From Minisyncoccota bacterium (lineage in GTDB: Bacteria > Patescibacteriota > Minisyncoccia > Phycocordibacterales > UBA1550), in NCBI GenBank assembly GCA_023229865.1, contig JALNYL010000004.1, forward strand, positions 17,773-81,772: 64,000 nt of DNA, in the 5' to 3' direction. Positions 7,311 through 24,506 of this stretch are shown one piece after another. A model generated the notes under the pieces. The model saw only the letters and a program-made list of their open reading frames with translations, was not told the origin of the DNA and searched no databases. Every line of letters starts with the position of its first letter. The first letter of the stretch is position 1. The position numbers were made by a program, and so were the translations under genes.

Positions 7311-8597
7311 ATGAAAAAGCCCCACGTAGTTGTGCTCGGTGGAAACTTTGCAGGTATGGGTAGCGCCCAGAAGATTCGTGAGTATGCAGGAAATGCGGTA
7401 GATATTACCGTTATTGATCGCAAGGATTATTTGCTTTTCGTTCCCAATATTCCGAATGAAGTTCTCGAAAACAGAGACCCTCAGGACTCTTTGAAGATGG
7501 ACATCCCATCAACACTCAAGAGAGATGGAATCAATTTTATTCAAGCAGAAGTTACTGGACTTGATGTAGACAAAAAGACCGTGACGTATGTACCAGCAGA
7601 GCGTCCGGGTGCGGAGGCTCATTCAATGGCATACGACTATGTTGTCGTTGCTGTCGGATGTCGTCTTGCTTTCGACAAGATTCCTGGTTTCGCTGAGTAC
7701 GGTGATACGGTTGCGGATTTTTATCACGGCAATCGTTTGCGCGCAAAGCTCCACAATGGTGGCTACAAGGGTGGACCGATTGTTATCGGTTCAGCACTTT
7801 GGCATCAGGGAGATGGGGCGAAGGATGTAAAGCCTTACGGCACTGGAAGTATCCCTGCAGCCCTTGCTGCATGTGAAGGTCCAACCGTGGAAATGGCACT
7901 TTCAATGGCTACATGGCTCCAGAATCACAACATGGGGGATGCGAAGAAAATCACCATCACAACTCCCGCTGAAGTCATCGCAGAGGATGCGGGCGAGAAG
8001 GTTGTGGGGACGCTTCTTGGGGCCGCAGGAGCTATGGGCTTCAACTATGTAAACAATACCCGCGATATCGTACGTCTCACGGAGACTCACATTGAGTTTG
8101 AAGGAGGCCAGAAGATTGAAGCGGAGATTAAGGTTATTTTCCCAGACTGGGAAGCGTACAAGTTCCTTCAGGGTCTTCCTATTTCTGACAACAAGGGCTT
8201 TGTGATTACTGACCTCCTTATGCGTAACCCAAAGTACCCTGAGGTATTCGCAGCAGGAGACTGTGCAGCGGTGACCGTGCCAAAGCTTGGCTCAATCGGG
8301 CACGAAGAATGTGAAATCGTTGGACGCCAGATCGCAGCAGCGGTGGGTAAGATGACCCCCGAAAAGGCAAATACACCTCTCAATCCGGTAGTACTCTGTC
8401 TTGGTGATATGGGAAATTCAAAAGCATTCTACATTCGTTCAAACTCTTGGTTTGGAGGGCCAACACAGGAACTTCGTTTTGGTCGTAGAAACTTCTTCCT
8501 TAAGATGCGCTACCGCGATCTCTTCTTCTGGGGTAAGGGCAAGACTCCTTCATGGGGAAATAAATTTGCCACATGGCTCGCAGAAGTTCTTAAGTAA
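7311..8597 (+). CDS. FAD-dependent pyridine nucleotide-disulfide oxidoreductase (sulfide:quinone reductase / NDH-2-like)
   Basis: N-terminal Rossmann HVVVLGGNFAGMGSA and a second dinucleotide motif FAAGDCAAV. Extended -10 TGTATAAT at about 7263-7270. Confidence 0.6.
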   Translation: MKKPHVVVLGGNFAGMGSAQKIREYAGNAVDITVIDRKDYLLFVPNIPNEVLENRDPQDSLKMDIPSTLKRDGINFIQAEVTGLDVDKKTVTYVPAERPGAEAHSMAYDYVVVAVGCRLAFDKIPGFAEYGDTVADFYHGNRLRAKLHNGGYKGGPIVIGSALWHQGDGAKDVKPYGTGSIPAALAACEGPTVEMALSMATWLQNHNMGDAKKITITTPAEVIAEDAGEKVVGTLLGAAGAMGFNYVNNTRDIVRLTETHIEFEGGQKIEAEIKVIFPDWEAYKFLQGLPISDNKGFVITDLLMRNPKYPEVFAAGDCAAVTVPKLGSIGHEECEIVGRQIAAAVGKMTPEKANTPLNPVVLCLGDMGNSKAFYIRSNSWFGGPTQELRFGRRNFFLKMRYRDLFFWGKGKTPSWGNKFATWLAEVLK

Positions 8598-11220: not shown

Positions 11221-12447
11221 ATGAAACTCAACGATATTTTTCACGAAACATACACCGCGCTCTCTGCAAACAAGGCGCGCTCGGGCCTCACGATACTCGG
11301 CATCGTGATTGGTATTTCGTCGGTGATCGCGATGGTGTCTATTGGGACCGGAGCGTCGGCAAGTATTTCTTCGCGTATTGAGTCTCTTGGTTCAAATCTT
11401 ATTCAAATCACGCCGGGGGCTCAGCGCACGCAAGGGTTTGGCGCAAGTGGTGGGCGTGGCAACGCGAAGACGCTGACAACCGCCGACGCGGAGGCGATTG
11501 CAAAAGAAGTTGCAAACGTAGCTGCTGTTGATGCGCAAGTATCAGGGAGATATCAGGTGACGGCAAAAGGCACCAATACCAACACGAGTGTTACGGGGGT
11601 TACCTCAGCGTATCTTTCGGTGCGCAATGTTGAAGTCGCGGAGGGGACGTTTATTACCGATGCTCAAAACAACAGCGCGGCAAAGGTCGCCGTGCTCGGG
11701 CCCACGACGCGCGACGATCTTTTTGGTGCTGACGCGACTGACGTAGTAGGGAAGAGCGTGCGTATCAAGGGGGTGGAGTTTAAAGTCGTTGGTATCACGG
11801 TTGCAAAGGGTGGCACGGGATTCCAAAATCAAGACGACATCATTTTCATCCCCGTAAAAAGCGCACAGCGATATTTCTCGGGAGACCAATACTTGAGCAC
11901 GATTGCGGTCCAGGCATCGACTCAAGAGGAAATGACACAAGTGCAAGAGGATATCACTACGCTTCTTTTGAGCAGGCATAAGATTAGCGATCCTGCACAA
12001 GCCGATTTCAGTGCGATGAATCAAAACGATATTCTTTCGACAGCCTCGAGTGTGACCTCGACACTGACGTATCTTCTCGCAGCAATCGGAAGTATCTCAC
12101 TTCTTGTGGGAGGTATCGGTATTATGAATATGATGCTCACGACGGTGACCGAGCGCACGCGGGAGATTGGACTTCGCAAAGCAATCGGTGCCAAGAAAAA
12201 AGATATCTCAACGCAATTTCTCGCTGAGGCGGTTGCGCTTACGGTGATTGGTGGCGTGATTGGTATTGCGCTCGGGTGGCTCATTGCATATGTGGTCAAT
12301 CTGACAGGACTCGTGACGACAAGTGTCTCACTTTCATCAGTAATCCTCGCGTTTGGTGTGTCGGCGGTCACGGGTATTGTGTTTGGATATTATCCTGCCC
12401 GCCGCGCTGCAAACTTGAATCCCATTGAAGCGATGCGCTATGAATAG
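11221..12447 (+). CDS. ABC transporter permease, FtsX/MacB-type with periplasmic domain
   Basis: N-terminal TM, periplasmic MacB_PCD-like region, C-terminal FtsX 4-TM bundle (GIGIMNMMLTTVTERTREIGLRKAIGA). Start is adjacent to the stop of the ATPase gene. Confidence 0.8.
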   Translation: MKLNDIFHETYTALSANKARSGLTILGIVIGISSVIAMVSIGTGASASISSRIESLGSNLIQITPGAQRTQGFGASGGRGNAKTLTTADAEAIAKEVANVAAVDAQVSGRYQVTAKGTNTNTSVTGVTSAYLSVRNVEVAEGTFITDAQNNSAAKVAVLGPTTRDDLFGADATDVVGKSVRIKGVEFKVVGITVAKGGTGFQNQDDIIFIPVKSAQRYFSGDQYLSTIAVQASTQEEMTQVQEDITTLLLSRHKISDPAQADFSAMNQNDILSTASSVTSTLTYLLAAIGSISLLVGGIGIMNMMLTTVTERTREIGLRKAIGAKKKDISTQFLAEAVALTVIGGVIGIALGWLIAYVVNLTGLVTTSVSLSSVILAFGVSAVTGIVFGYYPARRAANLNPIEAMRYE

Positions 12448-12514
12448 TGAAAGAAAAGAGTAACCCATTTGTAATATAAAGCGAGTAGCTCACAATTAAA
12501 TTATTTAAAATTTT

Positions 12515-12979
12515 ATGGAACAATTAAAAAACAAAAAGAATATTATCAATATCGCAATTCTCATTGCGGTCGCGCTCGGTTCGTTTTACTGTGGCACACT
12601 CTACACAGCAAAGAATAAATCATTCCCTCGTGGTGGTTTCCAGATGATGGACGGTCGCGGAGTACCTGGGGAAGCGGGGACTTATCGAGATGGTGTGTCT
12701 CGTAGCGGCGCTCGCGGCATGATGGGTGGAGTTGTCGCGGGAGAAGTTATTTCAAAAGATGCGACAAGCATCACGGTGAAAATGCAGGACGGCAGTACGA
12801 AAATCGTGCTCGTAAGTGGAAGCACACAAGTATCAAAGTCAGCTGCTGGAGCGATGGAAGATCTTACTCAGGGAGTAAGTGTCGTCGTTATTGGCTCGGC
12901 AAATACGGACGGGAGTGTGACGGCGCAGTCAGTACAGATTCGCCCACAAGGAGCAGGTCTTCCCGTAAAGCAGATTTAG
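12515..12979 (+). CDS. Hypothetical secreted/membrane-anchored Gly-rich protein
   Basis: N-terminal TM/signal, no SD. A TAAAAT box lies 6 nt upstream of the ATG (leaderless pattern). Followed by a terminator hairpin at about 13003-13030. Confidence 0.35.
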   Translation: MEQLKNKKNIINIAILIAVALGSFYCGTLYTAKNKSFPRGGFQMMDGRGVPGEAGTYRDGVSRSGARGMMGGVVAGEVISKDATSITVKMQDGSTKIVLVSGSTQVSKSAAGAMEDLTQGVSVVVIGSANTDGSVTAQSVQIRPQGAGLPVKQI

Positions 12980-13069
12980 TTACATAAATACATTCACAAG
13001 AGAAAAGCGGTCAGACTGGCCGTTTTTTTCTTTGAAATAAAAGATTCCCGCGTGTTGTATAATAGATAG

Positions 13070-13645
13070 ATGAACCGCGTGCAAAGTGAAAAAACCGACG
13101 AAGAGATTGTTCTGCTTGTTCAGCGTGGAGACACTGAGCAATTTGGTGAGCTTGTGGAGCGTTATGAAGAAAAGCTTTTGCGCTATGGTCGCAAGTTTCT
13201 CTCGCGTCGCGAAGACATTCAGGATATTGTGCAGGATATTTTTATCAGTACGTATCAGAATATTCAAAACTTCGACACCCTACAGCGATTCTCTCCGTGG
13301 ATTTATCGCATCGCGCACAATGCTTTTGTAAATCGATTGAAGAAGAATTCGTACAACCCGCTTATTCTCGTCGACTTTGACACGCTCGTCTCTCATCCTG
13401 TGTATGAAGACCCTGCGCCACTTGAGCGCGAACAAAAAGAGATGCGGGTGATGATCGACAGGGGGCTCGAGGAACTCGCGCCAAAGTATCGTGAAATCCT
13501 CATCTTGCATTATCTCGAAGATATGTCATACAAAGAAATATCAGATATTTTACAAATCCCAGGAGGGACCGTCGGTATACGTTTGAAGAGAGCAAAGGAG
13601 GCACTTAAAAAAGTTTACGAAACAATGAACCTACACCATGAATAA
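13070..13645 (+). CDS. ECF-family RNA polymerase sigma factor
   Basis: Sigma-70 region 2 (IFISTYQNIQNFD...WIYRIAHNAFVNRLKK) and region 4 (YREILILHYLEDMSYKEISDILQIPGGTVGIRLKRAKEALKK). Extended -10 TGTATAAT at 13056-13063 lies 6 nt before the ATG. Confidence 0.85.
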   Translation: MNRVQSEKTDEEIVLLVQRGDTEQFGELVERYEEKLLRYGRKFLSRREDIQDIVQDIFISTYQNIQNFDTLQRFSPWIYRIAHNAFVNRLKKNSYNPLILVDFDTLVSHPVYEDPAPLEREQKEMRVMIDRGLEELAPKYREILILHYLEDMSYKEISDILQIPGGTVGIRLKRAKEALKKVYETMNLHHE

Positions 13646-14369
13646 TCACGAACCAAAAAAGAATATTAAAGAAGCAATTCTTCGCAAGATAGAGACGCGT
13701 GAGCTTTCGATGCGTCCAAAGTTGTATTTTACGCTCAGGATTGTGTCGATTGCGGTGCTTGCCCTCGCCGTGCTCCTCATCTCTGTTTTTATTCTCAATT
13801 TTATTTTGTTCAGTATTCGTATCAATAGTCACGAAGCTTTACTTTCCTTTGGTCCTCGTGGGTGGAGTGCTTTCTTTCATTTCTTCCCCTGGGTACCGCT
13901 TCTTCTTGATGTTGTCCTTGTGGTTGCCCTCTCTCGTCTCTTGCGACATTTTCGTTTTGGGTACAAGACACCCGTTCTCTATTTACTCGGTGCGCTTATT
14001 GTCGCCACCTCGCTTGTCGGTATTACGGTAGAGCGTGGCACACATATCAACGAACGCCTCCTTCGTCAGTCAGACGAGCGTGGGTTGCCGCCACCATTTG
14101 GAGGAATGTATGGACATGCTCGTCGCAATCTCCCTCCGGGTGCTGGCGTATGTTTGTGTACCGTTCTTTCTATCGAGGGGAATACACTTAGTGTGCAAGA
14201 TACAAAAAGCACTACGACGCTCAAAGTGCTCATCCCTGAAAACAGTCGTCGTGCGACAACCACTGGTCTCGTCGTGGGAGAAACAATTTTCGTTGCCGGG
14301 GAAGTGAAGGATGGCGTGATGCAAGCTTTTGGGATTAAGAAAGCAGAGGAAGGGTTCCCGAGACCTTAA
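13638..14369 (+). CDS. Putative membrane anti-sigma factor (hypothetical, co-transcribed with ECF sigma)
   Basis: Overlaps the sigma gene stop by 8 nt. Multiple TM helices. Position is typical for a cognate anti-sigma factor. Confidence 0.5.
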   Translation: MNNHEPKKNIKEAILRKIETRELSMRPKLYFTLRIVSIAVLALAVLLISVFILNFILFSIRINSHEALLSFGPRGWSAFFHFFPWVPLLLDVVLVVALSRLLRHFRFGYKTPVLYLLGALIVATSLVGITVERGTHINERLLRQSDERGLPPPFGGMYGHARRNLPPGAGVCLCTVLSIEGNTLSVQDTKSTTTLKVLIPENSRRATTTGLVVGETIFVAGEVKDGVMQAFGIKKAEEGFPRP

Positions 14370-14380
14370 CTGGTGATAAT

Positions 14381-14427
14381 AAAAACACAGGGCCCGCGAT
14401 TCAGCCGAATCGCGGGCCCTGTGTTTT
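14381..14427 (+). terminator. Bidirectional terminator hairpin with GATTCAGCCGAATC core
   Basis: AAAAACACAGGGCCCGCGATTCAGCCGAATCGCGGGCCCTGTGTTTT. It serves the convergent genes at 13638-14369 and 14433-14924. Confidence 0.6.
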
Positions 14428-14432
14428 GCATG

Positions 14433-14924
14433 CTACATCAATTTCCCGAGGAGATAGTAAGTGAGTTCTGCTTGCACATTAGTGCGTAGGTGTTTGCGTA
14501 CCTCCGTAAATGCCGTTGTGCCATCACGCCCACATTCTTGGATAATCACCCCTTGCCCTCCTGGGTGCTGCACGATGTAAGGAGTGAGATCGTACACGTT
14601 CCCATCGATAATCACCCAGCAATTGCTCTTTGTCGCGTGCTTTGCGACTTCAGCCTTGGTGAGAGTAGGAGCTTTTGTTGCGGGGGTTGTTTCCTGTGGC
14701 TGAGGTGCTTCTTTTACGGTCGTTGTGGGGGCTACAGATGTAGTAGTCTCGGGTGAGGCTGTCGCCACTCTGTTTACAGGCGCACTGCGCATCTGCCCCT
14801 GCCCGCCTCCGTTTTTCGACACCGATACGCTTGGTGTGTTGCTGTCAAAAACCCCCATAAAATATGCGACGGCGACGGCGCTCGCGATAGCCAATAAAAA
14901 AGTCGCAATTGATGATTTGCTCAT
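14433..14924 (-). CDS. Membrane-anchored cytochrome b5-like heme-binding domain protein
   Basis: N-terminal TM and a Thr/Pro-rich linker. C-terminal Cyt-b5 fold with NCWVIIDGNVYDLTPYIVQHPGGQGVI...CGRDGT (HPGG heme motif). Confidence 0.65.
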   Translation of the reverse strand: MSKSSIATFLLAIASAVAVAYFMGVFDSNTPSVSVSKNGGGQGQMRSAPVNRVATASPETTTSVAPTTTVKEAPQPQETTPATKAPTLTKAEVAKHATKSNCWVIIDGNVYDLTPYIVQHPGGQGVIIQECGRDGTTAFTEVRKHLRTNVQAELTYYLLGKLM

Positions 14925-14984
14925 ATATCGGCATTATACAACATAGCCACCACTTTTCTTTCGTTTTTGCTATACTATTTGTAT

Positions 14985-15707
14985 ATGACATCTCCAGTAC
15001 CCGAGCACAAGCACAAAGAGCTCCACACCCACAAGACGGGCGTGCAGCTCAATTCCCTCCGTGCTGCTGTGCTTGGGGCAAATGACGGCATCGTTTCCAC
15101 AGCGTCTTTGGTTCTTGGAGTTGCGGGGGCTGCCGCCTCGTCGGATATTATTCTGATTACAGGAGTCGCAGGGCTTACTGCAGGTGCTCTCTCTATGGCA
15201 GTGGGGGAATATGTGTCGGTGAGTACTCAGCGCGACACTGAGAAGGCACTTCTTGAAAAAGAGCGTCACGAGCTTGAGACGACCCCCGATCACGAGCTCG
15301 GCGAACTCGTGTCTATTTATGAAAGAAAGGGGGTGTCACACGAAACCGCACAAAAGGTCGCCGAGGAGCTCACAGCTCACGATGCGTTTGCGGCGCATGT
15401 TGATGTGGAGCTCGGTATCAACCCCAACTCCCTCACAAACCCTTGGCACGCGGCGTATGCCTCTGCCGCGTCATTTACGGTGGGCTCGCTCATTCCGCTT
15501 TTTGCAATCATGCTCCCTTCGGAAGAAATGCGTGTTCCTGTTACGTTTGCATCAGTTCTTCTCGCGCTCATTATGACCGGAAGCCTTAGTGCCTACGCGG
15601 GTGGTTCATCTCAGCGTGTGGCGACGGTGCGTGTGGTGTTTGGCGGCCTTCTCGCGATGGCCATTACGTATGGGATAGGTACCCTTTTTGGCGTATCATC
15701 TGTGTAG
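14985..15707 (+). CDS. VIT1/CCC1-family iron/manganese transporter
   Basis: LGANDGIVSTASLVLGV motif and C-terminal TM helices. TATACT box at 14971-14976 sits just upstream of the ATG at 14985 (leaderless). Confidence 0.7.
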   Translation: MTSPVPEHKHKELHTHKTGVQLNSLRAAVLGANDGIVSTASLVLGVAGAAASSDIILITGVAGLTAGALSMAVGEYVSVSTQRDTEKALLEKERHELETTPDHELGELVSIYERKGVSHETAQKVAEELTAHDAFAAHVDVELGINPNSLTNPWHAAYASAASFTVGSLIPLFAIMLPSEEMRVPVTFASVLLALIMTGSLSAYAGGSSQRVATVRVVFGGLLAMAITYGIGTLFGVSSV

Positions 15708-15782
15708 GGGTTTACTTTTCTTACCCCCAGGAGTAGGCTAAACATCGGGTTTGAACATTAACTAATAGCAGGGAGGTGCGCT

Positions 15783-16112
15783 ATGTGTAATACGTCAAAG
15801 AATGCAGTGAGATTCCGCCTCATGGAAACAAAGCTTGAAATCGAAGCACTCCAAGAACGCTTCGAATCGCTCCGTCTTGAGCTCCAAAAAGAGTGCAAGC
15901 ACAAAGAGGTGATCGAAACCGAAGATCTCGGCGTCAGAAACACCTATTTGCCCCGAGTTTGCACCGGGTGTGGGCTCGAAGAACAGGTGTGGATTGACGA
16001 ACAGGGTCAAAGTTCTGGCTACAAGATTCTTGGCGGGGCAGAAGGCCGCATTATTCGCGTTGCCTTGAGTGTTGAGCTCTTGCACTACAAGGAATTGCGC
16101 CACATCGTTTGA
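15783..16112 (+). CDS. Small zinc-ribbon-like hypothetical protein (tandem paralog 1)
   Basis: SD GGGAGG. CKH...CTGC Cys pairs. Block VCTGCGLEEQVWIDEQGQSSGYKILGGAEGRII is shared with the next gene. Followed by terminator AAAAGCGGACGCTCCCGAGCTCCGCTTTTT. Confidence 0.4.
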   Translation: MCNTSKNAVRFRLMETKLEIEALQERFESLRLELQKECKHKEVIETEDLGVRNTYLPRVCTGCGLEEQVWIDEQGQSSGYKILGGAEGRIIRVALSVELLHYKELRHIV

Positions 16113-16247
16113 TTTTTCCCAAAAAGCGGACGCTCCCGAGCTCCGCTTTTTCTTTTTCTTTCAAAAAGGGGATATCCTTTACATTTTATGTTGTCAGGAG
16201 TAGTGTGAATCAGGGTCAGATCTATCAATCACTGAAGCGGAGGAATT

Positions 16248-16664
16248 ATGCCTAATACTCAGAAAGCCCGTACGAAACTCCTGGTTTTGAACATACGGCG
16301 CTCGATTGCTCAGATGCAAGCAAGAGAAAAGCATCTTTTTAACACTCTCCAGTTAATCTGCGGGCACCCGGTGGTGGCCGAACACGACCGTGGTGCCAAT
16401 AACTACTCCGTGCGGATTTGCACTGAGTGTACCCTGCGGGAGGAAGCGTGGGTTGACGAAGCGGGGATGAGCAGTGGCTTCGAAAAGCTTGTGGGTGCTG
16501 AAAACCGCACTATTAAGCAAGTTTCGATGGCCGAAATAGCGCAATACGAAACACTGCAAGACGACAATCAAAAGCCTGCTGCAGAAGATGGTGTTGCGGT
16601 AGTGATGAAGAAAACACTCCTCCTGGCTCAAGACCAGCTGGGTAACTACAAGAAGGATCGATAG
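16248..16664 (+). CDS. Small zinc-ribbon-like hypothetical protein (tandem paralog 2)
   Basis: SD GGAGGA. ICTECTLREEAWVDEAGMSSGFEKLVGAENRTI. An identical terminator sequence follows, as after paralog 1. Confidence 0.4.
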   Translation: MPNTQKARTKLLVLNIRRSIAQMQAREKHLFNTLQLICGHPVVAEHDRGANNYSVRICTECTLREEAWVDEAGMSSGFEKLVGAENRTIKQVSMAEIAQYETLQDDNQKPAAEDGVAVVMKKTLLLAQDQLGNYKKDR

Positions 16665-17040
16665 AAGTAAAAACATTAAAAGCGGACGCTCCCGAGCTCC
16701 GCTTTTTCTTTTTTTTCAAAAAATATACACTCCTCGACAGCCCCCTGTGGAAAACTTTTTACATAAAATTGTTTTGCGAGAAGAAAAATTTTGTTTGCCA
16801 AAATTTGCGCGCGGAAAACGCAGAATTTCAGCCCTCGTTTGCCAAATTTTTAGACATTCTTTTTTGTGCATGATGTAGTCATAAAATTATTCAAATTTAC
16901 TTCCGTTTAGTTTTTCCTCTGTGTTAAAATAGGGGAGTTAAAGCGCACTTCGGGCATAGTTTTTGTTTTCCATTAGGCAAAAAAGCTTGCATCCACCCGT
17001 AGGTGCCTTTTTTAATCATCATTAACAACTTATCCATCAT

Positions 17041-19878
17041 ATGAATCAGGTCCAAAAACGAAACGGTACTATCGTAGAGTTCTCTCCGGAGAAAATCACG
17101 ACTGCGATTAGTAAAGCTTTCAGCGCGTGCAACACCCCCATTACCGAGGAAAAGCTTTCTGAAATGACCGCAGCTGTTTTGATGGCCGTAAAAGATGGTG
17201 GATATGGACAGATTCCCTCTGTTGAGAAGATCCAGGACGTTGTTGAGCTCGTTATTATGAACGAGGGCTTCCACGAAGTCGCAAAAGCCTACATCATTTA
17301 TCGTTACGAACACGAGAAAATCCGTGAAAAGAAGCAGGAAGAGGTTATTGAGAAGATCGAAGACAAAAAACTCTCTATTACCAAGCGCTCCGGCAAGACC
17401 GAGCACTATTCTGAGAAGAAAATCGAGAAAACCCTCGCGCGTGTGACGAGTGGCTATGAGAAGGCTATTGATGTCGACTCTATTCTTACTCAGCTCAAGC
17501 TCAATGTGTACGAGGGTATCACTACGACCGAGATTACGCGCGCAATCATTCAGGTTATGCGCTCAATGATCGAGCTCGACCCTGCGTATTCCAAGGTTGC
17601 TGCACGTCTTCTCTTGCAAAAGCTCTACCGTGATGTCTTTGGAACCAACTTTGAGCCAAAGGACATCCTCTCCGCACACGCAAAGTCATTCCCCGAGAAC
17701 ATCAAGCGCGCCGTTGCTGATGGTCTCCTCGACGCACGCATGCTCGAGTTTGATCTCGACAACCTTGTAACAAAGTTTGAGCTCGAAAACGACGAACTCT
17801 TTGAATACATGGGACTCGAGATTCTCGCGTCACGCTATTTCCAAGAGGACCCAAAGACCAAGAAGCCCATCGAGACTCCTCAGATGTTTTGGATGCGTAT
17901 CGCTATGGGTACCGCACTCAACGAAAAGCCCGAGGACCGCACTCGCGTAGCACTCGAGTTCTATGAGGTGCTCTCTCGCTTCCTCTACACCCCAGGAGGC
18001 CGCACCCTCTTCCAAGCGGGGGCAAAGAAGGCTCAGCTTGCAAACTGCTTCCTCAACGTCGTTCCAGACTCTCTCGACGCTATCTTTAAGACATTTGGCG
18101 ATAATGCGCAGTATTTGAAGTGGTCAGGTGGTACGGGTACGAGCTGGACTCCACTCCGCGCTACGGGTGGCTTCATCAGTGGTACGGGCGTGGGGAGTCA
18201 GGGGGTTGTTCCTTTCCTCAAGATTGCCAACGATATCAACATTGCTATCAACCGTTCCGGCAAGCGCCGTGGGGCAGGTTGCGTGTATCTTGAGACATGG
18301 CACCTCGATATTGAGGATTTCCTCGAGCTCCGCAAGAACACCGGCGATGAGCGTCGTCGTACCCACGATGTGAATACCGCCAACTGGATTCCTGACCTCT
18401 TTATGAAGCGTGTTCGTGATGGCAAGGAGTGGACACTCTTTTCTCCTGACGAAACCCCAGATCTCCACGAGATTTACGGCGCAGCATTCGAAAAGCGCTA
18501 CGAGGAATACGAAAAGATGGCAGACGAGGGCAAAATCAAGCTCTTCAAGCGTCTCCCTGCGACCGACATCTGGAAGAAGATGATTTCGATGCTCTTTGAG
18601 ACAGGGCACCCTTGGATTACGTTCAAGGATCCTTGTAACGTGCGTTCACCTCAGGATCACGCAGGTGTTGTTCACAGCTCAAATCTCTGCACCGAGATCA
18701 CGCTCAATACCAACGCCAACGAGACCGCTGTATGTACGCTCGGCTCACTCAACTTCGCAAAGTTTGTAAAGGACGGCAAGTTTGACCACGAGCTCGTAGA
18801 GAGCGTGACTCGAAGCGCAGTCCGTATGCTCGACAACGTTATCGATGTGAACTTCTATCCTACGGAAGACGCCCGCCGTGGTAGCACCCTCCATCGCCCT
18901 GTCGGACTCGGTGTTCGTGGGTATCACGATGCACTTTACCTCCTCGGTATCGACTTTGACTCAGAAGAAGCAGTGAAGTTTGCGGACGAGAGTATGGAAG
19001 TCGTCGCATACTACACCATCCTCGCATCATCAGAGCTCGCCAAGGAGCGTGGCGTCTACTCGACCTACAAGGGTTCAAAGTGGGATCGCGGACTCCTTCC
19101 TCAAGACACCGTCGACCTCCTCGAAACAGAGCGTGGCGAGAAGATTGAAGTAGAGCGTGGTGGTGTACTCGACTGGACTCCTGTACGCGAGAGTATCAAG
19201 AAGCACGGCATGAGAAACAGCAACGTGATGGCCATTGCGCCGACCGCAAGTACGGCCAACCTCGCAGGATGTATTCCTTGCGTAGAGCCTATCTACAAAA
19301 ACATTTACGTAAAGTCCAACAAAGAAGGGGACTTCGTGGTGGTAAACAAGTATCTCGTTGAAGACTTGAAGCGCCTCGGGCTCTGGAGCCGTGATATGTT
19401 GAACAAAATCAAGTTCCACGACGGTAGCATCCAAAACATCGCCGAGCTTCCTCGCGATATTCGCAAGAAGTACAAGGAAGTGTTTGAGATTGATTCACGT
19501 TGGCTCATCGATGCCGCAGCACGCCGTGCAAAGTGGATCGACCAGTCACAGTCACTCAACATCTTCTTCCGTGGCACCTCAGGCAAAGAGCTTTCAGAGA
19601 TTTACTTCTACGCATGGAAGAAAGGCCTCAAGACGACCTACTACCTCCGCTCACTCGGTGCGTCACAAGTAGAGAAGTCCACCGTGTCCGTTTCAGAATT
19701 CGGCAACACACACAAGCGCGACTTCACGGTCAAGTCCGCAGATGCCGTAGTGTCTATCAAGGAAGAAATCAAAATTACTTCAGCCCCGTCGGAAGACCAA
19801 AAGAAAGCCGACGCCGAGTTTATGGCACGCGTCGCGAGAGGAGAGGAGGTTGGTATCTGTGAGTCGTGCCAGGGTTAA
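17041..19878 (+). CDS. nrdA: Ribonucleoside-diphosphate reductase alpha subunit (class I) with two N-terminal ATP-cone domains
   Basis: Two ATP-cone repeats (VQKRNGTIVEF; ITKRSGKTEHYSEKKIE). Active-site NLCTEI, catalytic Cys/Glu region and C-terminal CESC. GC-rich codon usage. Confidence 0.9.
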   Translation: MNQVQKRNGTIVEFSPEKITTAISKAFSACNTPITEEKLSEMTAAVLMAVKDGGYGQIPSVEKIQDVVELVIMNEGFHEVAKAYIIYRYEHEKIREKKQEEVIEKIEDKKLSITKRSGKTEHYSEKKIEKTLARVTSGYEKAIDVDSILTQLKLNVYEGITTTEITRAIIQVMRSMIELDPAYSKVAARLLLQKLYRDVFGTNFEPKDILSAHAKSFPENIKRAVADGLLDARMLEFDLDNLVTKFELENDELFEYMGLEILASRYFQEDPKTKKPIETPQMFWMRIAMGTALNEKPEDRTRVALEFYEVLSRFLYTPGGRTLFQAGAKKAQLANCFLNVVPDSLDAIFKTFGDNAQYLKWSGGTGTSWTPLRATGGFISGTGVGSQGVVPFLKIANDINIAINRSGKRRGAGCVYLETWHLDIEDFLELRKNTGDERRRTHDVNTANWIPDLFMKRVRDGKEWTLFSPDETPDLHEIYGAAFEKRYEEYEKMADEGKIKLFKRLPATDIWKKMISMLFETGHPWITFKDPCNVRSPQDHAGVVHSSNLCTEITLNTNANETAVCTLGSLNFAKFVKDGKFDHELVESVTRSAVRMLDNVIDVNFYPTEDARRGSTLHRPVGLGVRGYHDALYLLGIDFDSEEAVKFADESMEVVAYYTILASSELAKERGVYSTYKGSKWDRGLLPQDTVDLLETERGEKIEVERGGVLDWTPVRESIKKHGMRNSNVMAIAPTASTANLAGCIPCVEPIYKNIYVKSNKEGDFVVVNKYLVEDLKRLGLWSRDMLNKIKFHDGSIQNIAELPRDIRKKYKEVFEIDSRWLIDAAARRAKWIDQSQSLNIFFRGTSGKELSEIYFYAWKKGLKTTYYLRSLGASQVEKSTVSVSEFGNTHKRDFTVKSADAVVSIKEEIKITSAPSEDQKKADAEFMARVARGEEVGICESCQG

Positions 19879-21026: not shown

Positions 21027-21177
21027 TCGCTCTGGTCTTTTTATCGGATTTCGGCGTTGCAACCTCCGCTTGCTCCCGCGCAGTACTAGATGTACAGCTT
21101 GGTCACAATGCTCGGTTGCGCCTTGAACTCCAATAAAAATCCTCAGAGCTTGTGTGTGTCGGCTTTAAATACATAAA

Positions 21178-21222
21178 CAACCCCCTGCTTTTCAAAAAAG
21201 TGGGGGTTGTTTGCACCCTTTT
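21178..21222 (+). terminator. Rho-independent terminator after nrdB
   Basis: AACAACCCCC-tgcttttcaaaaaagt-GGGGGTTGTT followed by a T-run. Confidence 0.55.
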
Positions 21223-21270
21223 TCCAGTGTAATTGAGTGCAATCTTATAGATAGTTGCTATAATGTGTCT

Positions 21271-22155
21271 ATGTCATTTTCCGTCACCAAGTTCCTTAAG
21301 GGAATAAAAGAAATAAATTTTAAATATTCATCATTTAGAAAAAATGCCAATGATCACTTGTTGATTAATGGAAATTCTGCGGATGTCCTAAAATCCTTTC
21401 CAAATGAATGTATAGATTTAATTTTTACAGACCCTCCATATAATGCTGATCTTGAGTACGGCTCTACTTATAAAGATAATTTATCTTGGGATGAATATTA
21501 TAAACAAGCAAAGAGCTGGTTCAAAGAGTATAATAGAATTTTGAGCAAGACTGGTTCTGTCTACATAATGAATTATCCAGAGGTTAATGCCCGCTTGCTC
21601 CCTTATCTCACTGACGAACTTGGCTTTAAATTGCAGCGCTGGATTACTTGGCATTACCCCACTAATATTGGGCACTCAAAGAAGAATTTCACAAGAAGTC
21701 AGAGATCTATTCTATTTTTAACAAAAACAAATAATTATACTTTTAATAGAGACAAAATTATTCAACCATATAAAAATGAGAATGTAGGTAAGATTAAAGA
21801 AAGAATTAAAAATGGCTCACGCGGGAGGGGTGCTTATGACATGCTCTCATTTCTTGATTTGCTTGAGATGAGGATTGCGGAAAAAAACTTCAACCCTCTC
21901 GATGTGCATGATGTTAATTTGCTTAAAAATATTTCAAAAGATAGATTGAATGGGAAGCATCCTTGTCAGCTCCCTTTTGAATTAATTAAGCGCTTTATAG
22001 AAGTCAGCTCTAACCCTGGGGATGTTGTTTTGGATCCATTTGCTGGTACTTTCAGTACTTCTTTTGTCGCGTCTGATTTAAAAAGAGCTTCTGTCGGTAT
22101 AGAAATTAATCCAAAATATGTTAGTCTTGGCGTTAAACGAATTAAAAATGGCTAA
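21271..22155 (+). CDS. Site-specific DNA methyltransferase, beta class (N6-adenine or N4-cytosine), DPPY motif
   Basis: Motif IV FTDPPYN lies N-terminal and motif I VLDPFAGTFSTS C-terminal (beta permutation). Extended -10 TGCTATAAT at 21256-21264 lies 6 nt before the ATG at 21271. Markedly AT-rich relative to flanking genes. Confidence 0.8.
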   Translation: MSFSVTKFLKGIKEINFKYSSFRKNANDHLLINGNSADVLKSFPNECIDLIFTDPPYNADLEYGSTYKDNLSWDEYYKQAKSWFKEYNRILSKTGSVYIMNYPEVNARLLPYLTDELGFKLQRWITWHYPTNIGHSKKNFTRSQRSILFLTKTNNYTFNRDKIIQPYKNENVGKIKERIKNGSRGRGAYDMLSFLDLLEMRIAEKNFNPLDVHDVNLLKNISKDRLNGKHPCQLPFELIKRFIEVSSNPGDVVLDPFAGTFSTSFVASDLKRASVGIEINPKYVSLGVKRIKNG

Positions 22156-23833
22156 GCAAACGGAACAACAAAAAAAAGAAAAACGACTCAGTAAGAATGT
22201 CTCAAGCACATTTAATAATGCGGGCTTTACTTGTGTGGGCAAAACTAAAGATATTGAAGTCATTGTTGACGGGCAAAAGTCGGATTTTGATAATATTTTT
22301 TATTACGAAAACAATATTATTTTTATAGAGGAGACAACAAATAGTACTTCAGAGCATGTTAGAAAAAAGTATGAATTTTATATGACATGCTGTAATAATA
22401 AAAATTTATTTTTAAATGAACTTAAAAGTAAATTTCCTGGAATTCGTAAGATTGTCACTCAGCACACTCCTTCTGAATTAAATTTTATATATGTTTATAC
22501 GTCATTAAATTCTGTTGATTGTAAATACCAAACAAGATACAAGGAAATATTTTTTTGGGACATAAAACAACTACTATATTTTTTGACCCTGTCTTCTATT
22601 ATTCAGAAAACATCAAAATATGAAATATTTACTGCCCTAGGGATACCTTTGGGGCAACAAATCAGTACCTCTACTTCTCGTGCGGGGTATGATGCAATGA
22701 TACTGCCACAAGTAGCCAGTGGTTTCCCAGATGGGTATCAAATATTCTCATTTTTTATTGATCCAGAAAATTTACTTCAGCAAGCATATGTCCTAAGAAA
22801 ATATGCCTGGTTAGACGCCGATCATTTATATCAAAGGATTTTAGTGAAAAATAAGATAAATGAAATGAGGGGGTACTTAGTTAACGAGAATAGAACATTT
22901 TTGAATAATATTATAGCCACTCTTCCAGATGACGTAAAAATAGATGATGACAAGGGTCACACCATAGCGGATGCAAGTAAATTGCGTGCTGGAGACAGAG
23001 TAAAAATACATATACCAGTTAACTCAAACAACATAGGAATTATTGATGGTCAGCATAGAATATTTGCTTATCACGAAGGTGATGATGTTCATGAGGCTAA
23101 GATATCTAAAATTAGATCAAAAAGACATCTTTTAATTACCGCAATATTATATCCGACGGGGATATCTCAAAAAGATAAGGAAGCCTTTGAGGCAAAGCTT
23201 TTTTTGGAAATAAATGACAAACAAACACCAATTAAGTCATCACTTAAACATGTAATATATACTGTAGTTGATCCATTTTCAGATATAGCTATTTCTAAAA
23301 GAATAGTACAGGAGCTATCAAAAAATGCTCCAATGAATGAAGTATTTGAAACAAATTATTTTGATAAAGGCAAACTTAGCACGACTTCAATCGTTAGTTA
23401 TGGAATAAAATATTTAGCAAAACTTGATGGTACAGACAGTCTTTTTTGTCTTTGGACAAACCCCAAAAAGGATGATTTAAAAAAGAGAAAGAGCCACAAG
23501 TTGCTGGATGCATATATTTCATTTAGTGCTACTCAGTTATCAATATTTTTGAGCGGTTTTAAGAGTGGTATTAATAAAGCAATGTGGACTCATGATCAAA
23601 AAATTAGCAAAGTTTTGACAGCGACTTCTATAAATGGGTTGATTCATTGCTTGAGATTACTTATACAAAATGGTAAGACAGGTGATTTTTTGTACTACAA
23701 TAAAAAGTTCAAGAATATAGAAAAAATAATTAATTTTTCGCCAGGGCAAAATGCAAAAGGAGAGGATTATTTCCCTTATAAATCTAGTCACTGGAAGGCC
23801 TTAGGAGAAGAAATCTACAATAAGTGCTTCTAA
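22148..23833 (+). CDS. DGQHR domain-containing protein (DndB/ParB-like nuclease superfamily) with extra N-terminal domain
   Basis: Literal DGQHR motif (NIGIIDGQHRIFAYH) embedded in a DndB-like region. Start ATG at 22148 overlaps the MTase stop (ATGGCTAA), indicating translational coupling. AT-rich, 561 aa. Confidence 0.7.
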   Translation: MAKQTEQQKKEKRLSKNVSSTFNNAGFTCVGKTKDIEVIVDGQKSDFDNIFYYENNIIFIEETTNSTSEHVRKKYEFYMTCCNNKNLFLNELKSKFPGIRKIVTQHTPSELNFIYVYTSLNSVDCKYQTRYKEIFFWDIKQLLYFLTLSSIIQKTSKYEIFTALGIPLGQQISTSTSRAGYDAMILPQVASGFPDGYQIFSFFIDPENLLQQAYVLRKYAWLDADHLYQRILVKNKINEMRGYLVNENRTFLNNIIATLPDDVKIDDDKGHTIADASKLRAGDRVKIHIPVNSNNIGIIDGQHRIFAYHEGDDVHEAKISKIRSKRHLLITAILYPTGISQKDKEAFEAKLFLEINDKQTPIKSSLKHVIYTVVDPFSDIAISKRIVQELSKNAPMNEVFETNYFDKGKLSTTSIVSYGIKYLAKLDGTDSLFCLWTNPKKDDLKKRKSHKLLDAYISFSATQLSIFLSGFKSGINKAMWTHDQKISKVLTATSINGLIHCLRLLIQNGKTGDFLYYNKKFKNIEKIINFSPGQNAKGEDYFPYKSSHWKALGEEIYNKCF

Positions 23834-23917
23834 AAGGAAATGGGGACAGCCACGGTTCAAAGAAAAAGGGACACCATTCTTTCGTAAATTGTGTGATGCA
23901 ATGTAACCCCAAAAATC

Positions 23918-23946
23918 CTGAATCAGCAGATTCACGTCTTGGACGA
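23918..23946 (+). repeat. 29-bp palindrome-containing repeat, copy 1 (CTGAATCAGCAGATTCACGTCTTGGACGA)
   Basis: Exact or near-exact copies at 25529-25557 and 49655-49683. Contains TGAATC-AGCA-GATTCA and CGTC-TTG-GACG inverted repeats. Confidence 0.7.
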
Positions 23947-24125
23947 AATCGTCGTTCTCTACCTCTCAACCATTCAACCCCTCAATCTTTTCATTCCAAC
24001 AATTATTTGCTATCGCAGATAATTGTTGGAATTGGTTTTGCCTACTTTTCGTTTTTGAAACAAGGGGGCGCACTGTCTGCAAAAGGAAAAACAGCTGCCC
24101 ACTTGGGACAGCTGTTCTGAGGCTT

Positions 24126-24365
24126 TTAAAGTTTATTCAAAGCAGAGACATTAGAATCAAGCTTCGAGGCGACCGCCAGTTGTAAAACTGCAACTTTGGC
24201 GGGAATATCCTTTGCCACCAATCGCATCTTTGCCCCCGAGTGTGCTTCGACTAATTGAAGCACGTTGTTGGGGTAAGCGCTTTCGCACTTGTGACACGCA
24301 GTATTTTGGGGGTTATCAATCACGTGCCCCCCACAACTTGGACAAGACAAACCTGCGATAATCAT
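24126..24365 (-). CDS. Small zinc-ribbon protein (CPSCGG...CHKC), hypothetical
   Basis: SD GGAGGA 6 nt upstream of the ATG at 24365. A hairpin terminator lies downstream at about 24085-24115. Confidence 0.4.
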   Translation of the reverse strand: MIIAGLSCPSCGGHVIDNPQNTACHKCESAYPNNVLQLVEAHSGAKMRLVAKDIPAKVAVLQLAVASKLDSNVSALNKL

Positions 24366-24506
24366 ATGGATTCCTCCGTTTGGTGATTGAGAACAAGTAT
24401 CCTAATTAGTAAACTACTCTTTTGGAGGAATGAAGTCAAATTATAGAAATAATCTACAGACAGGGGTATAATACTTGTATATCAGCGAGCAATAATTATT
24501 AATAAT

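Follow-up and report, generated by a model that had tools for sequence, protein, structure and literature searches.

The nearest named families of DGQHR-domain proteins are DndB and DpdB. DndB represses the dnd operon (PMC4507180), and DpdB is a DNA-stimulated ATPase, the ATPase being required for DpdA to modify DNA (PMC10164549). In SspE, the DGQ(H/Q)R motif is needed for nucleoside triphosphatase (NTPase) activity (PMC10164549), and a DndB-like protein binds ATP and GTP (bioRxiv 10.1101/2025.10.10.680097). DUF262 domains detect DNA modification and, by hydrolysing nucleoside triphosphates (NTPs), switch on the nucleases fused to them (PMC12065111). The DGQHR and DUF262 switches have so far been tied to exotic modifications (phosphorothioate, 7-deazaguanine, and glucosyl-hydroxymethylcytosine). 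Here, a gene pair is described from a 64,000-nucleotide stretch of a Minisyncoccota bacterium (GenBank assembly GCA_023229865.1, contig JALNYL010000004.1, positions 17,773 to 81,772), hereafter called the window. Two open reading frames (ORFs) on the plus strand (21271-23833) encode a beta-class N6A/N4C DNA methyltransferase (MTase; 21271-22155, 294 aa from the ATG at 21271), followed by a three-domain DGQHR protein, the putative restriction or effector component (22148-23833, 561 aa). We put it at somewhat better than an even chance that the two genes form a self-contained, horizontally mobile, two-gene restriction-modification (R-M)-like defence module, in which the methylase would mark self and its partner would act as an NTP-gated nuclease against unmarked DNA.

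The predicted structure of the DGQHR protein consists of three parts: an N-terminal nuclease-fold domain, a DGQHR domain of the ParB/sulfiredoxin fold, and a helical C-terminal domain. SspE and the GmrSD/BrxU enzymes (DUF262 ParB-fold NTPase and DUF1524 HNH nuclease) likewise combine, in one polypeptide, a ParB/sulfiredoxin-fold nucleotide-binding domain with a D-G-x-Q/H-R motif, a helical domain, and a DNA nuclease. They carry out modification-aware restriction, SspE together with partner modification genes. Their nuclease, however, is a C-terminal HNH domain, whereas the one here is N-terminal and of the PD-(D/E)xK type. The partner here is a simple methylase, while that of SspE is a phosphorothioation machine, and GmrSD enzymes, unlike the pair, have no partner and attack modified DNA. 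Identity with GmrSD or SspE was rejected, since the DGQHR protein had no Pfam match to DUF262 or DUF1524 and the nuclease fold and domain order differ. DndB shares the DGQHR domain, with a ParB-like core and then a helical C-terminal part, but lacks the roughly 170-residue N-terminal nuclease domain. DndB proper (TIGR04172) was rejected at 39.3 bits against a cut-off of 450, with no dndCDE(A) genes close by, either in the window or at the 80 loci described below. DpdB has a DGQ(H/Q)R ParB-fold domain as well, and is encoded beside the gene of a DNA-modifying enzyme; it has no nuclease domain, and its role is in modification, not in restriction. This assignment (NF041060) was also rejected (37.3 bits against a cut-off of 300; no dpdA/TGT-like neighbour).

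Type II and IIS R-M systems (FokI and BspD6I modules, M.MboIIA-like methylases) share with the pair a two-gene operon of methylase and nuclease and a cleavage domain of the FokI/BspD6I class. The classical Type II trait, a methylase gene adjacent to a nuclease-fold gene, is present in 77 of the 80 loci, but the effector is far more conserved across partner-methylase classes than usual Type II endonucleases are. To our knowledge, no Type II endonuclease has a ParB/DGQHR NTP-binding domain. Type III systems (beta-class Mod and Res) resemble the pair in having a beta-class amino-methylase and a large NTP-using partner with a PD-(D/E)xK nuclease, NTP use being presumed for the DGQHR protein. In Type III enzymes, the NTP is a switch for one-dimensional diffusion on DNA, conceptually as in ParB-fold CTP/ATP clamps. 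Unlike in these systems, there is no helicase/SF2 motor domain here, and the methylase was Type II-like in PADLOC.

The effector had no full-length match in PADLOC-DB v2.0.0, only partial, weak ones to DpdB (E 1.5e-9, residues 196-310) and DndB (E 5e-4). No PHROG family and no specific NCBIfam family was found for it, and its RefSeq name is only "DGQHR domain-containing protein". An identical 561-aa protein has been deposited from a Candidatus Pacebacteria metagenome-assembled genome (MAG). No description of a methylase and DGQHR-nuclease pair was found in the full-text literature searched or in a 2025 R-M review, a coverage that excludes some journals and REBASE. Within methylation-based restriction-modification, the architecture of the effector appears to be new.

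Full-length relatives of the DGQHR protein (approximately 540-600 aa, 36-73% identity) occur in Candidate Phyla Radiation (CPR) bacteria, Bacteroidota, Proteobacteria, Planctomycetota, Gemmatimonadota, Acidobacteriota, and Fusobacteria, and, among archaea, in Methanosarcinales, Methanoperedens, Thermoplasmatota, and Methanobacteriota. The family is rare: among 1.84 billion cluster representatives scanned exhaustively with HMMER, only 173 DGQHR-family clusters reached E ≤ 1e-30. Gene arrangement was counted at 80 genomic loci of DGQHR homologs, from CPR bacteria, Bacteroidota, Proteobacteria, Planctomycetota, Firmicutes, and three lineages of archaea, and the gene pair recurred in all 80. A PF01555 methylase was encoded immediately upstream on the same strand in 73 of them, immediately downstream in three, and divergently upstream in one. 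In one locus each, the methylase was split from the DGQHR gene by two inserted genes (L057), belonged to a neighbouring SNF2/NOV_C island at a distance of 4.6 kb (L028), or stood beside a frameshifted DGQHR gene (L075). No intact DGQHR gene was far from an MTase gene, the distance in L028 being the maximum. When flanking ORFs were clustered all against all, no third conserved gene emerged, and no other gene was present in more than 7 of the 80 loci. Among 149 flanking proteins, no dnd or dpd family occurred twice (Pfam), and none of the ten flanking window proteins had a dnd or dpd match in PADLOC.

A preliminary description of this stretch, made from its letters only, had noted that dnd and dpd genes were not nearby, which holds, and had considered that homologous pairs might always sit inside such clusters. 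Across the 80 loci they did not: in bacteria and archaea alike, the two genes travel together, and no dnd or dpd genes accompany them. They form a module, and their adjacency is not a matter of chance. The idea that an orphan methylase and an unrelated DGQHR gene are neighbours by accident is excluded by 77 of the 80 independent loci, which come from both prokaryotic domains and have a conserved gene order with overlapping or near-abutting frames.

Two loci contained a broken DGQHR gene next to an intact MTase gene, one with a nonsense mutation at the codon of the invariant E348 (L069) and one with the frameshift mentioned above (L075). The converse decay, with the MTase gene alone broken, was not seen among the loci examined. 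The proximity of an MTase to every intact DGQHR gene and the decay of the DGQHR gene only are a population-genetic pattern like that of R-M systems and count in favour of the R-M reading.

The pair is horizontally mobile. According to Pfam, the 149 neighbours were a mixture of housekeeping proteins (LepA, UvrB, IDH) and mobile or defence functions (IS110 transposases, DpnI, GmrSD_N, extra methylases). PADLOC matched the same neighbours, in individual loci, to Menshen NsnA, Septu PtuA, DRT, and components of Type II and III R-M systems. In the temperate Akkermansia phage Chantilly, the pair is located between the integrase and the repressor, the usual place of prophage defence cargo. This context of mobility and defence (phage Chantilly, the defence neighbours in some loci, and the hotspot with an MzaB-like sister allele described below) also counts for the R-M reading.

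The neighbourhoods of several homologs had features of their own. L028 (Sabulibacter ruber, 11766-17041) is the only locus without an adjacent methylase. Downstream of it, on the opposite strand, are five genes; two of their products are unannotated, and the others are a NOV_C-domain protein, an SNF2 helicase, and a PF01555 methylase. Upstream is a gene for a non-specific Endonuclease_NS. The five-gene block is probably a separate defence island, and its methylase may serve the DGQHR protein. In four Bacteroidota loci, the module is abutted by a two-gene unit encoding a HATPase_c_3 protein of approximately 549 aa and a protein of approximately 291-300 aa without a Pfam match (L022:7780-10297, L052:6064-8592, L057:7367-9925, and L074:~7657-8532); in L057, it separates the methylase gene from the DGQHR gene. 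The unit may travel with the module as a system of its own or serve it as an optional accessory. In the homolog at L065:10001-11677 (Candidatus Gracilibacteria MAG), TGA occurs nine times in frame, once in the position of the invariant Gly297 shortly before DGQHR. Gracilibacteria recode TGA as Gly (genetic code 25), and since the TGA codons fit this code, the gene is probably intact. At L082:4869-6695 (Phyllobacterium zundukense plasmid NZ_CP017943.1), the RGI layer of PLSDB labels the homolog as the MFS efflux pump lmrP, a resistance label that is evidently a false positive.

In the window, the pair lies in a variable, low-GC (guanine-cytosine) cargo segment that extends from the nrdB stop codon to a SIMPL-family gene (21027-24506). 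The segment was delimited by comparison with a metagenomic sister contig (L083; ENA ERZ27247363 k141_808410), in which its equivalent is L083:7036-10030. The NrdB proteins of the two contigs are identical, and their DNA identity is 87-93% over nrdA, nrdB, and the downstream ABC-F gene. Nucleotide identity ends exactly at the nrdB stop (21026), and the SIMPL proteins are 79% identical. At the same junction, the sister contig contains another low-GC block (GC 0.365) with genes for a HATPase_c_3 protein of 502 aa that resembles MzaB, a defence protein (PADLOC E 2e-28), a 230-aa product, and a 104-aa product that is membrane-protein-like by sequence. Because a close relative has different low-GC cargo at this junction, the site is a swappable hotspot. 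Judged by this comparison of the two contigs, the islet of the pair is horizontally acquired, as the preliminary description had proposed, and the nrdB-SIMPL junction of this CPR lineage appears to be a hotspot for defence cargo. The same description had pointed to an AT-rich two-gene islet beside GC-rich nrdB, and the GC values agree: 0.325 for the pair, 0.511 for nrdAB upstream, and 0.498 for the SIMPL/SDR genes downstream. Among the long ORFs of the window, the pair has the lowest GC. A window search revealed no att-like direct repeats, tRNA, or integrase flanking the islet. The variable segment also contains, on the minus strand (24126-24365), a 79-aa zinc-ribbon-like ORF (CPSCGG...CHKC) that is missing from the sister contig. 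It is among the few window genes with a clear ribosome-binding site (GGAGG), has no PADLOC match and a marginal PHROG match, and is not conserved beside the pair in other loci.

The DGQHR protein was modelled with high confidence by AlphaFold2 from a 26-sequence alignment (predicted local distance difference test, pLDDT, 89.8; predicted template modelling score, pTM, 0.84), and residue conservation was computed over 119 homologs. The start of its gene at 22148 is backed by alignment with homolog P0002 (MAKSPEQ...). The DGQHR domain (residues 198-453, 22739-23506) was matched by NCBIfam TIGR03187 with 78.6 bits against a cut-off of 58.85 and by Pfam DndB with 35.0 bits against a cut-off of 29.1. 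Its structural matches were the ParB-N, PadC, KorB, and sulfiredoxin folds. The DGQHR motif itself, the equivalent of the phosphate-binding P-motif, is at residues 300-304 (23045-23059), and it is 99-100% conserved, as are YQR (228-230) and FLEIN/FxxxN (352-356). The literal motif seen in the preliminary description is thus borne out, and so is the DGQHR/ParB-like fold, which both the profile and the structure search recovered. That description had placed the motif in a DndB/ParB-nuclease-like region. The genuine fold stands, but from its motifs and by analogy, an NTP-binding switch is a better reading of the region than a nuclease.

Approximately 165-195 extra residues precede the DGQHR domain. 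Most of them form a PD-(D/E)xK (restriction-endonuclease-like) domain (residues ~25-165, 22220-22642) with an alpha/beta core of the FokI/BspD6I structural class. The extra N-terminus had been suggested to be a second nuclease-like module, and the structure search recovered such a fold; according to the model, this domain, and not the DGQHR region, is the likely catalytic nuclease. The putative active site (22283-22369) comprises D46-F-D48 (22283-22291), E61-E62-T63 (22328-22336), and H70-V-R-K73-K74 (22355-22369). Conservation was 97% for D48, 99% for E61, 97% for D/E62, 96% for T63, 100% for H70, and 87% for K73. In the model, D48 opens one hairpin strand and E61-x-T63 is on the next strand. 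These are the canonical D...(D/E)xK positions, but with Thr in place of Lys. The conserved H70 and K73 of the next helix could substitute for the missing lysine.

The ParB-fold domain contains a hypervariable insert (residues 260-295, 22925-23032), which varies more than any other part of the effector, with a mean identity of 0.27, against 0.55-0.59 in the flanking core. Of all segments, the insert correlated best with the identity of the partner MTase (rho 0.52, against 0.29-0.42 in the others). Variable segments have more dynamic range, so this is only a weak hint that the insert may be a specificity or MTase-contact element. The C-terminal helical domain (residues 401-561, 23348-23830) had no structural match, and the family profile had no match among all PDB sequences even at E ≤ 1.

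The window MTase was assigned to PF01555 (N6_N4_Mtase) with 170.5 bits (cut-off 26.7, E 6.7e-50), and in PADLOC it matched MTase_II (E 1.1e-54) better than MTase_III (1e-15). Its nearest solved relative is M.MboIIA (1g60), a Type IIS adenine methylase (E 7.8e-29). Motif IV, DPPY, an m6A (N6-methyladenine)-type catalytic motif, is at residues 54-57 (21430-21441, plus strand) and comes before motif I (VLDPFAGTFSTS, residues 253-264, 22027-22062, plus strand), so the MTase has the beta-class order named in the preliminary description. In motif I, the second Gly of the S-adenosylmethionine (AdoMet) loop is replaced by Phe, giving DPFAGTF (loop F-A-G-T-F) instead of the usual DPFxGxG(T/S) with the canonical loop FxGxG. 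The FAGTF variant is common to all six MTases of the window clade (window, L001, L002, L003, L006, and L013), and this DPPY clade spans CPR bacteria and archaea. The variant is kept across proteins that are 48-67% identical, and is therefore probably tolerated; such clade-wide conservation suggests that this motif I is functional. From its DPPY motif, the mark of the window MTase is probably m6A. The MTase stop and the start of the DGQHR gene, whose overlap had been pointed out earlier, are both inside ATGGCTAA (22148-22155, plus strand), and from this arrangement of the reading frames, the two genes are taken to be translationally coupled. An alternative MTase start (TTG, 21211) was rejected: it would overlap the nrdB terminator hairpin, and the lengths of homologs match the ATG at 21271.

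The partner methylases are variable. Among 72 paired methylases, motif IV was SPPY in 61, DPPY in 6 (including the window clade, i.e., window, L001-L003, L006, and L013), DPPF in 3, and neither in 2. Two size classes were found, a short one of approximately 290-330 aa and a long one of approximately 420-430 aa, whose C-terminal extension is unannotated. The two methylase classes share 24% identity. SPPY is the usual signature of N4-cytosine enzymes, and going by this motif, the mark in most relatives is probably N4-methylcytosine (m4C). The N6A/N4C partner proposed in the preliminary description therefore needs qualification: the window enzyme is of the DPPY (m6A) type, but DPPY is the minority, and most partners in the family are SPPY (m4C-type) enzymes. 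Six hosts of the family were looked up for a methylome motif in the supplements of Blow et al. 2016, and none of them is listed there. DGQHR proteins from different methylase groups are 40% identical and those from the same group 42-47%, and the methylase classes are interleaved on the DGQHR tree. This interleaving, together with the steady identity of the DGQHR proteins, indicates that the methylase has been exchanged repeatedly while the effector was kept.

Taken together, the methylase linkage, the nuclease fold with its conserved acidic residues joined to a ParB/sulfiredoxin domain, the lack of any other partner, the mobility, the decay of the effector, and the literature on DGQHR and DUF262 proteins argue for an R-M-like system. 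We infer nuclease activity, NTP dependence, methylation sensing, and a defence phenotype from sequence, model, and analogy. In such a system, the upstream beta-class amino-methyltransferase would mark host DNA. The ParB/sulfiredoxin-fold DGQHR domain would bind and hydrolyse NTP, acting as the switch that licenses the FokI/BspD6I-like PD-(D/E)xK domain to cut or nick DNA. The variable insert and the helical C-terminal domain would contact DNA or the methylase and read whether the mark is present, and unmarked incoming DNA would be cleaved. With the methylase gene first and translation overlapping, protection would come before restriction.

Several points weigh against this R-M reading. The whole family is known from sequence and predicted structure alone. 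The matches that Foldseek gave for the N-terminal domain in PDB were of the same fold class but had weak E-values (0.025 or higher). With threonine at the (D/E)xK lysine position (T63, 96%), catalysis would need K73 or H70 of the next helix, and the N-terminal domain may only bind DNA. Many loci of the family lie among housekeeping genes, and the family is nearly absent from plasmids (3/72,556) and phages (1/50,697). Furthermore, the DGQHR protein remains approximately 40% identical while the MTase class switches (24% identity; SPPY versus DPPY). A classical sequence-specific Type II endonuclease would hardly be expected to stay conserved across methylase swaps, and the R-M reading consequently requires recognition through the methylase or through a small, adaptable reader element. 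A more specific proposal, which we hold tentatively and consider less probable than not, is that the pair may represent a new mechanistic type of R-M, in which a ParB-fold NTP switch replaces the helicase motor of Types I and III and gates a FokI-like nuclease, the effector working with interchangeable m4C and m6A methylases. The switch would possibly be a DNA-entrapping clamp like ParB-CTP. The effector would read no fixed sequence, and the target would be chosen via the methylase or a small swappable insert, which would explain effector identities of approximately 40% across bacteria and archaea despite changes of methylase class.

One conserved effector tolerating m4C and m6A methylase swaps would also be explained by licensing of the kind known from SspE. 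Host methyl marks would be sensed by the DGQHR domain and would stimulate the NTPase, and the mobile nickase so produced would damage phage DNA that lacks the marks; in this case, the methylase would be an activating cofactor and not only an antidote. SspE, the closest characterised nuclease-bearing ParB-fold NTPase, works in this way with partner modification genes (PMC10164549, PMC12065111, PMC12707154). This would still be defence, with other logic, and we rate it as distinctly unlikely. Only marginally more likely, by our estimate, is a role on the modification side, in which the DGQHR protein would regulate or assist the methylase, either as a repressor modulated by ATP, like DndB, or as an ATPase on which modification depends, like DpdB, and the pair would be an epigenetic or orphan methylation unit without restriction. 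The two characterised DGQHR proteins do act on the modification side and not in restriction, DndB by repressing its operon (PMC4507180) and DpdB by providing the ATPase needed by DpdA (PMC10164549), and this is another point against the R-M reading. The missing ExK lysine and the many loci outside obvious defence islands fit such a role too. However, a repressor or loader would have no use for the fused PD-(D/E)xK domain and its near-invariant acidic residues, and beta-class methylases work alone. No helix-turn-helix or other dedicated DNA-binding regulator domain was detected in the DGQHR protein by Pfam or structure search, and the patchy horizontal distribution, the low GC, and the location in a prophage lysogeny module are typical of defence cargo. 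Strict co-inheritance, with every decayed copy having lost the DGQHR gene and none the MTase alone, and the position of the pair as hotspot cargo would suit a selfish addiction cassette, whose nuclease kills cells that lose the methylase and so stabilises the carrier element, phage defence being incidental. This we consider very improbable: plasmids very rarely carry the pair, the search around the islet found neither repeats nor an integrase or tRNA on its flanks, and in mechanism such a cassette does not differ from the R-M reading.

Should the pair prove to be a working restriction system, methylation-based immunity would gain a structurally new effector, in which a ParB/sulfiredoxin-fold nucleotide switch controls a PD-(D/E)xK nuclease. 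It would link the DGQHR/DUF262 switches to ordinary m6A and m4C and would provide, in only two genes, a compact model of how the sensing of a DNA mark is coupled to cleavage by a ParB-type NTP switch. The hosts include tiny-genome CPR bacteria, gut Bacteroidota, rhizobia, methanogen-related archaea, and one temperate Akkermansia phage, and with such a host range, the pair may be a real barrier to gene transfer in taxa that are hard to transform. An effector that tolerates methylase swaps could also yield programmable or methylation-reading nucleases.

Other features of the islet concern its transcription. An extended -10 box, TGCTATAAT (21256-21264, plus strand), is followed by 6 nt and the ATG of the MTase, the layout given in the preliminary description, and judging by this spacing, it is a plausible leaderless promoter of the MTase gene. 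A simple sigma-70 scan did not list the box because it has no -35 match. Elsewhere in the window, a Shine-Dalgarno-like sequence was present in only 3 of 28 genes inspected, and in several genes a TATAAT-like box precedes the ATG by 5-8 nt (starts, e.g., 8744, 11221, 13070, 35370, 40899, and 43464). The placement of these boxes and the scarcity of Shine-Dalgarno sequences suggest that leaderless mRNAs are common in this genome. Terminator-like hairpins are found on both sides of the pair, 3' of nrdB (21182-21206, plus strand; inverted repeat I8, 11-bp stem with a T-rich tail) and downstream of the pair (23993-24032, plus strand; inverted repeat I4, 18 bp). Apart from the pair, only one ORF of the window is markedly low in GC (58663-59097, plus strand, 144 aa, GC 0.36); it ends 5 nt before a tRNA-Tyr gene (59102-59185) and may be another small acquired gene.

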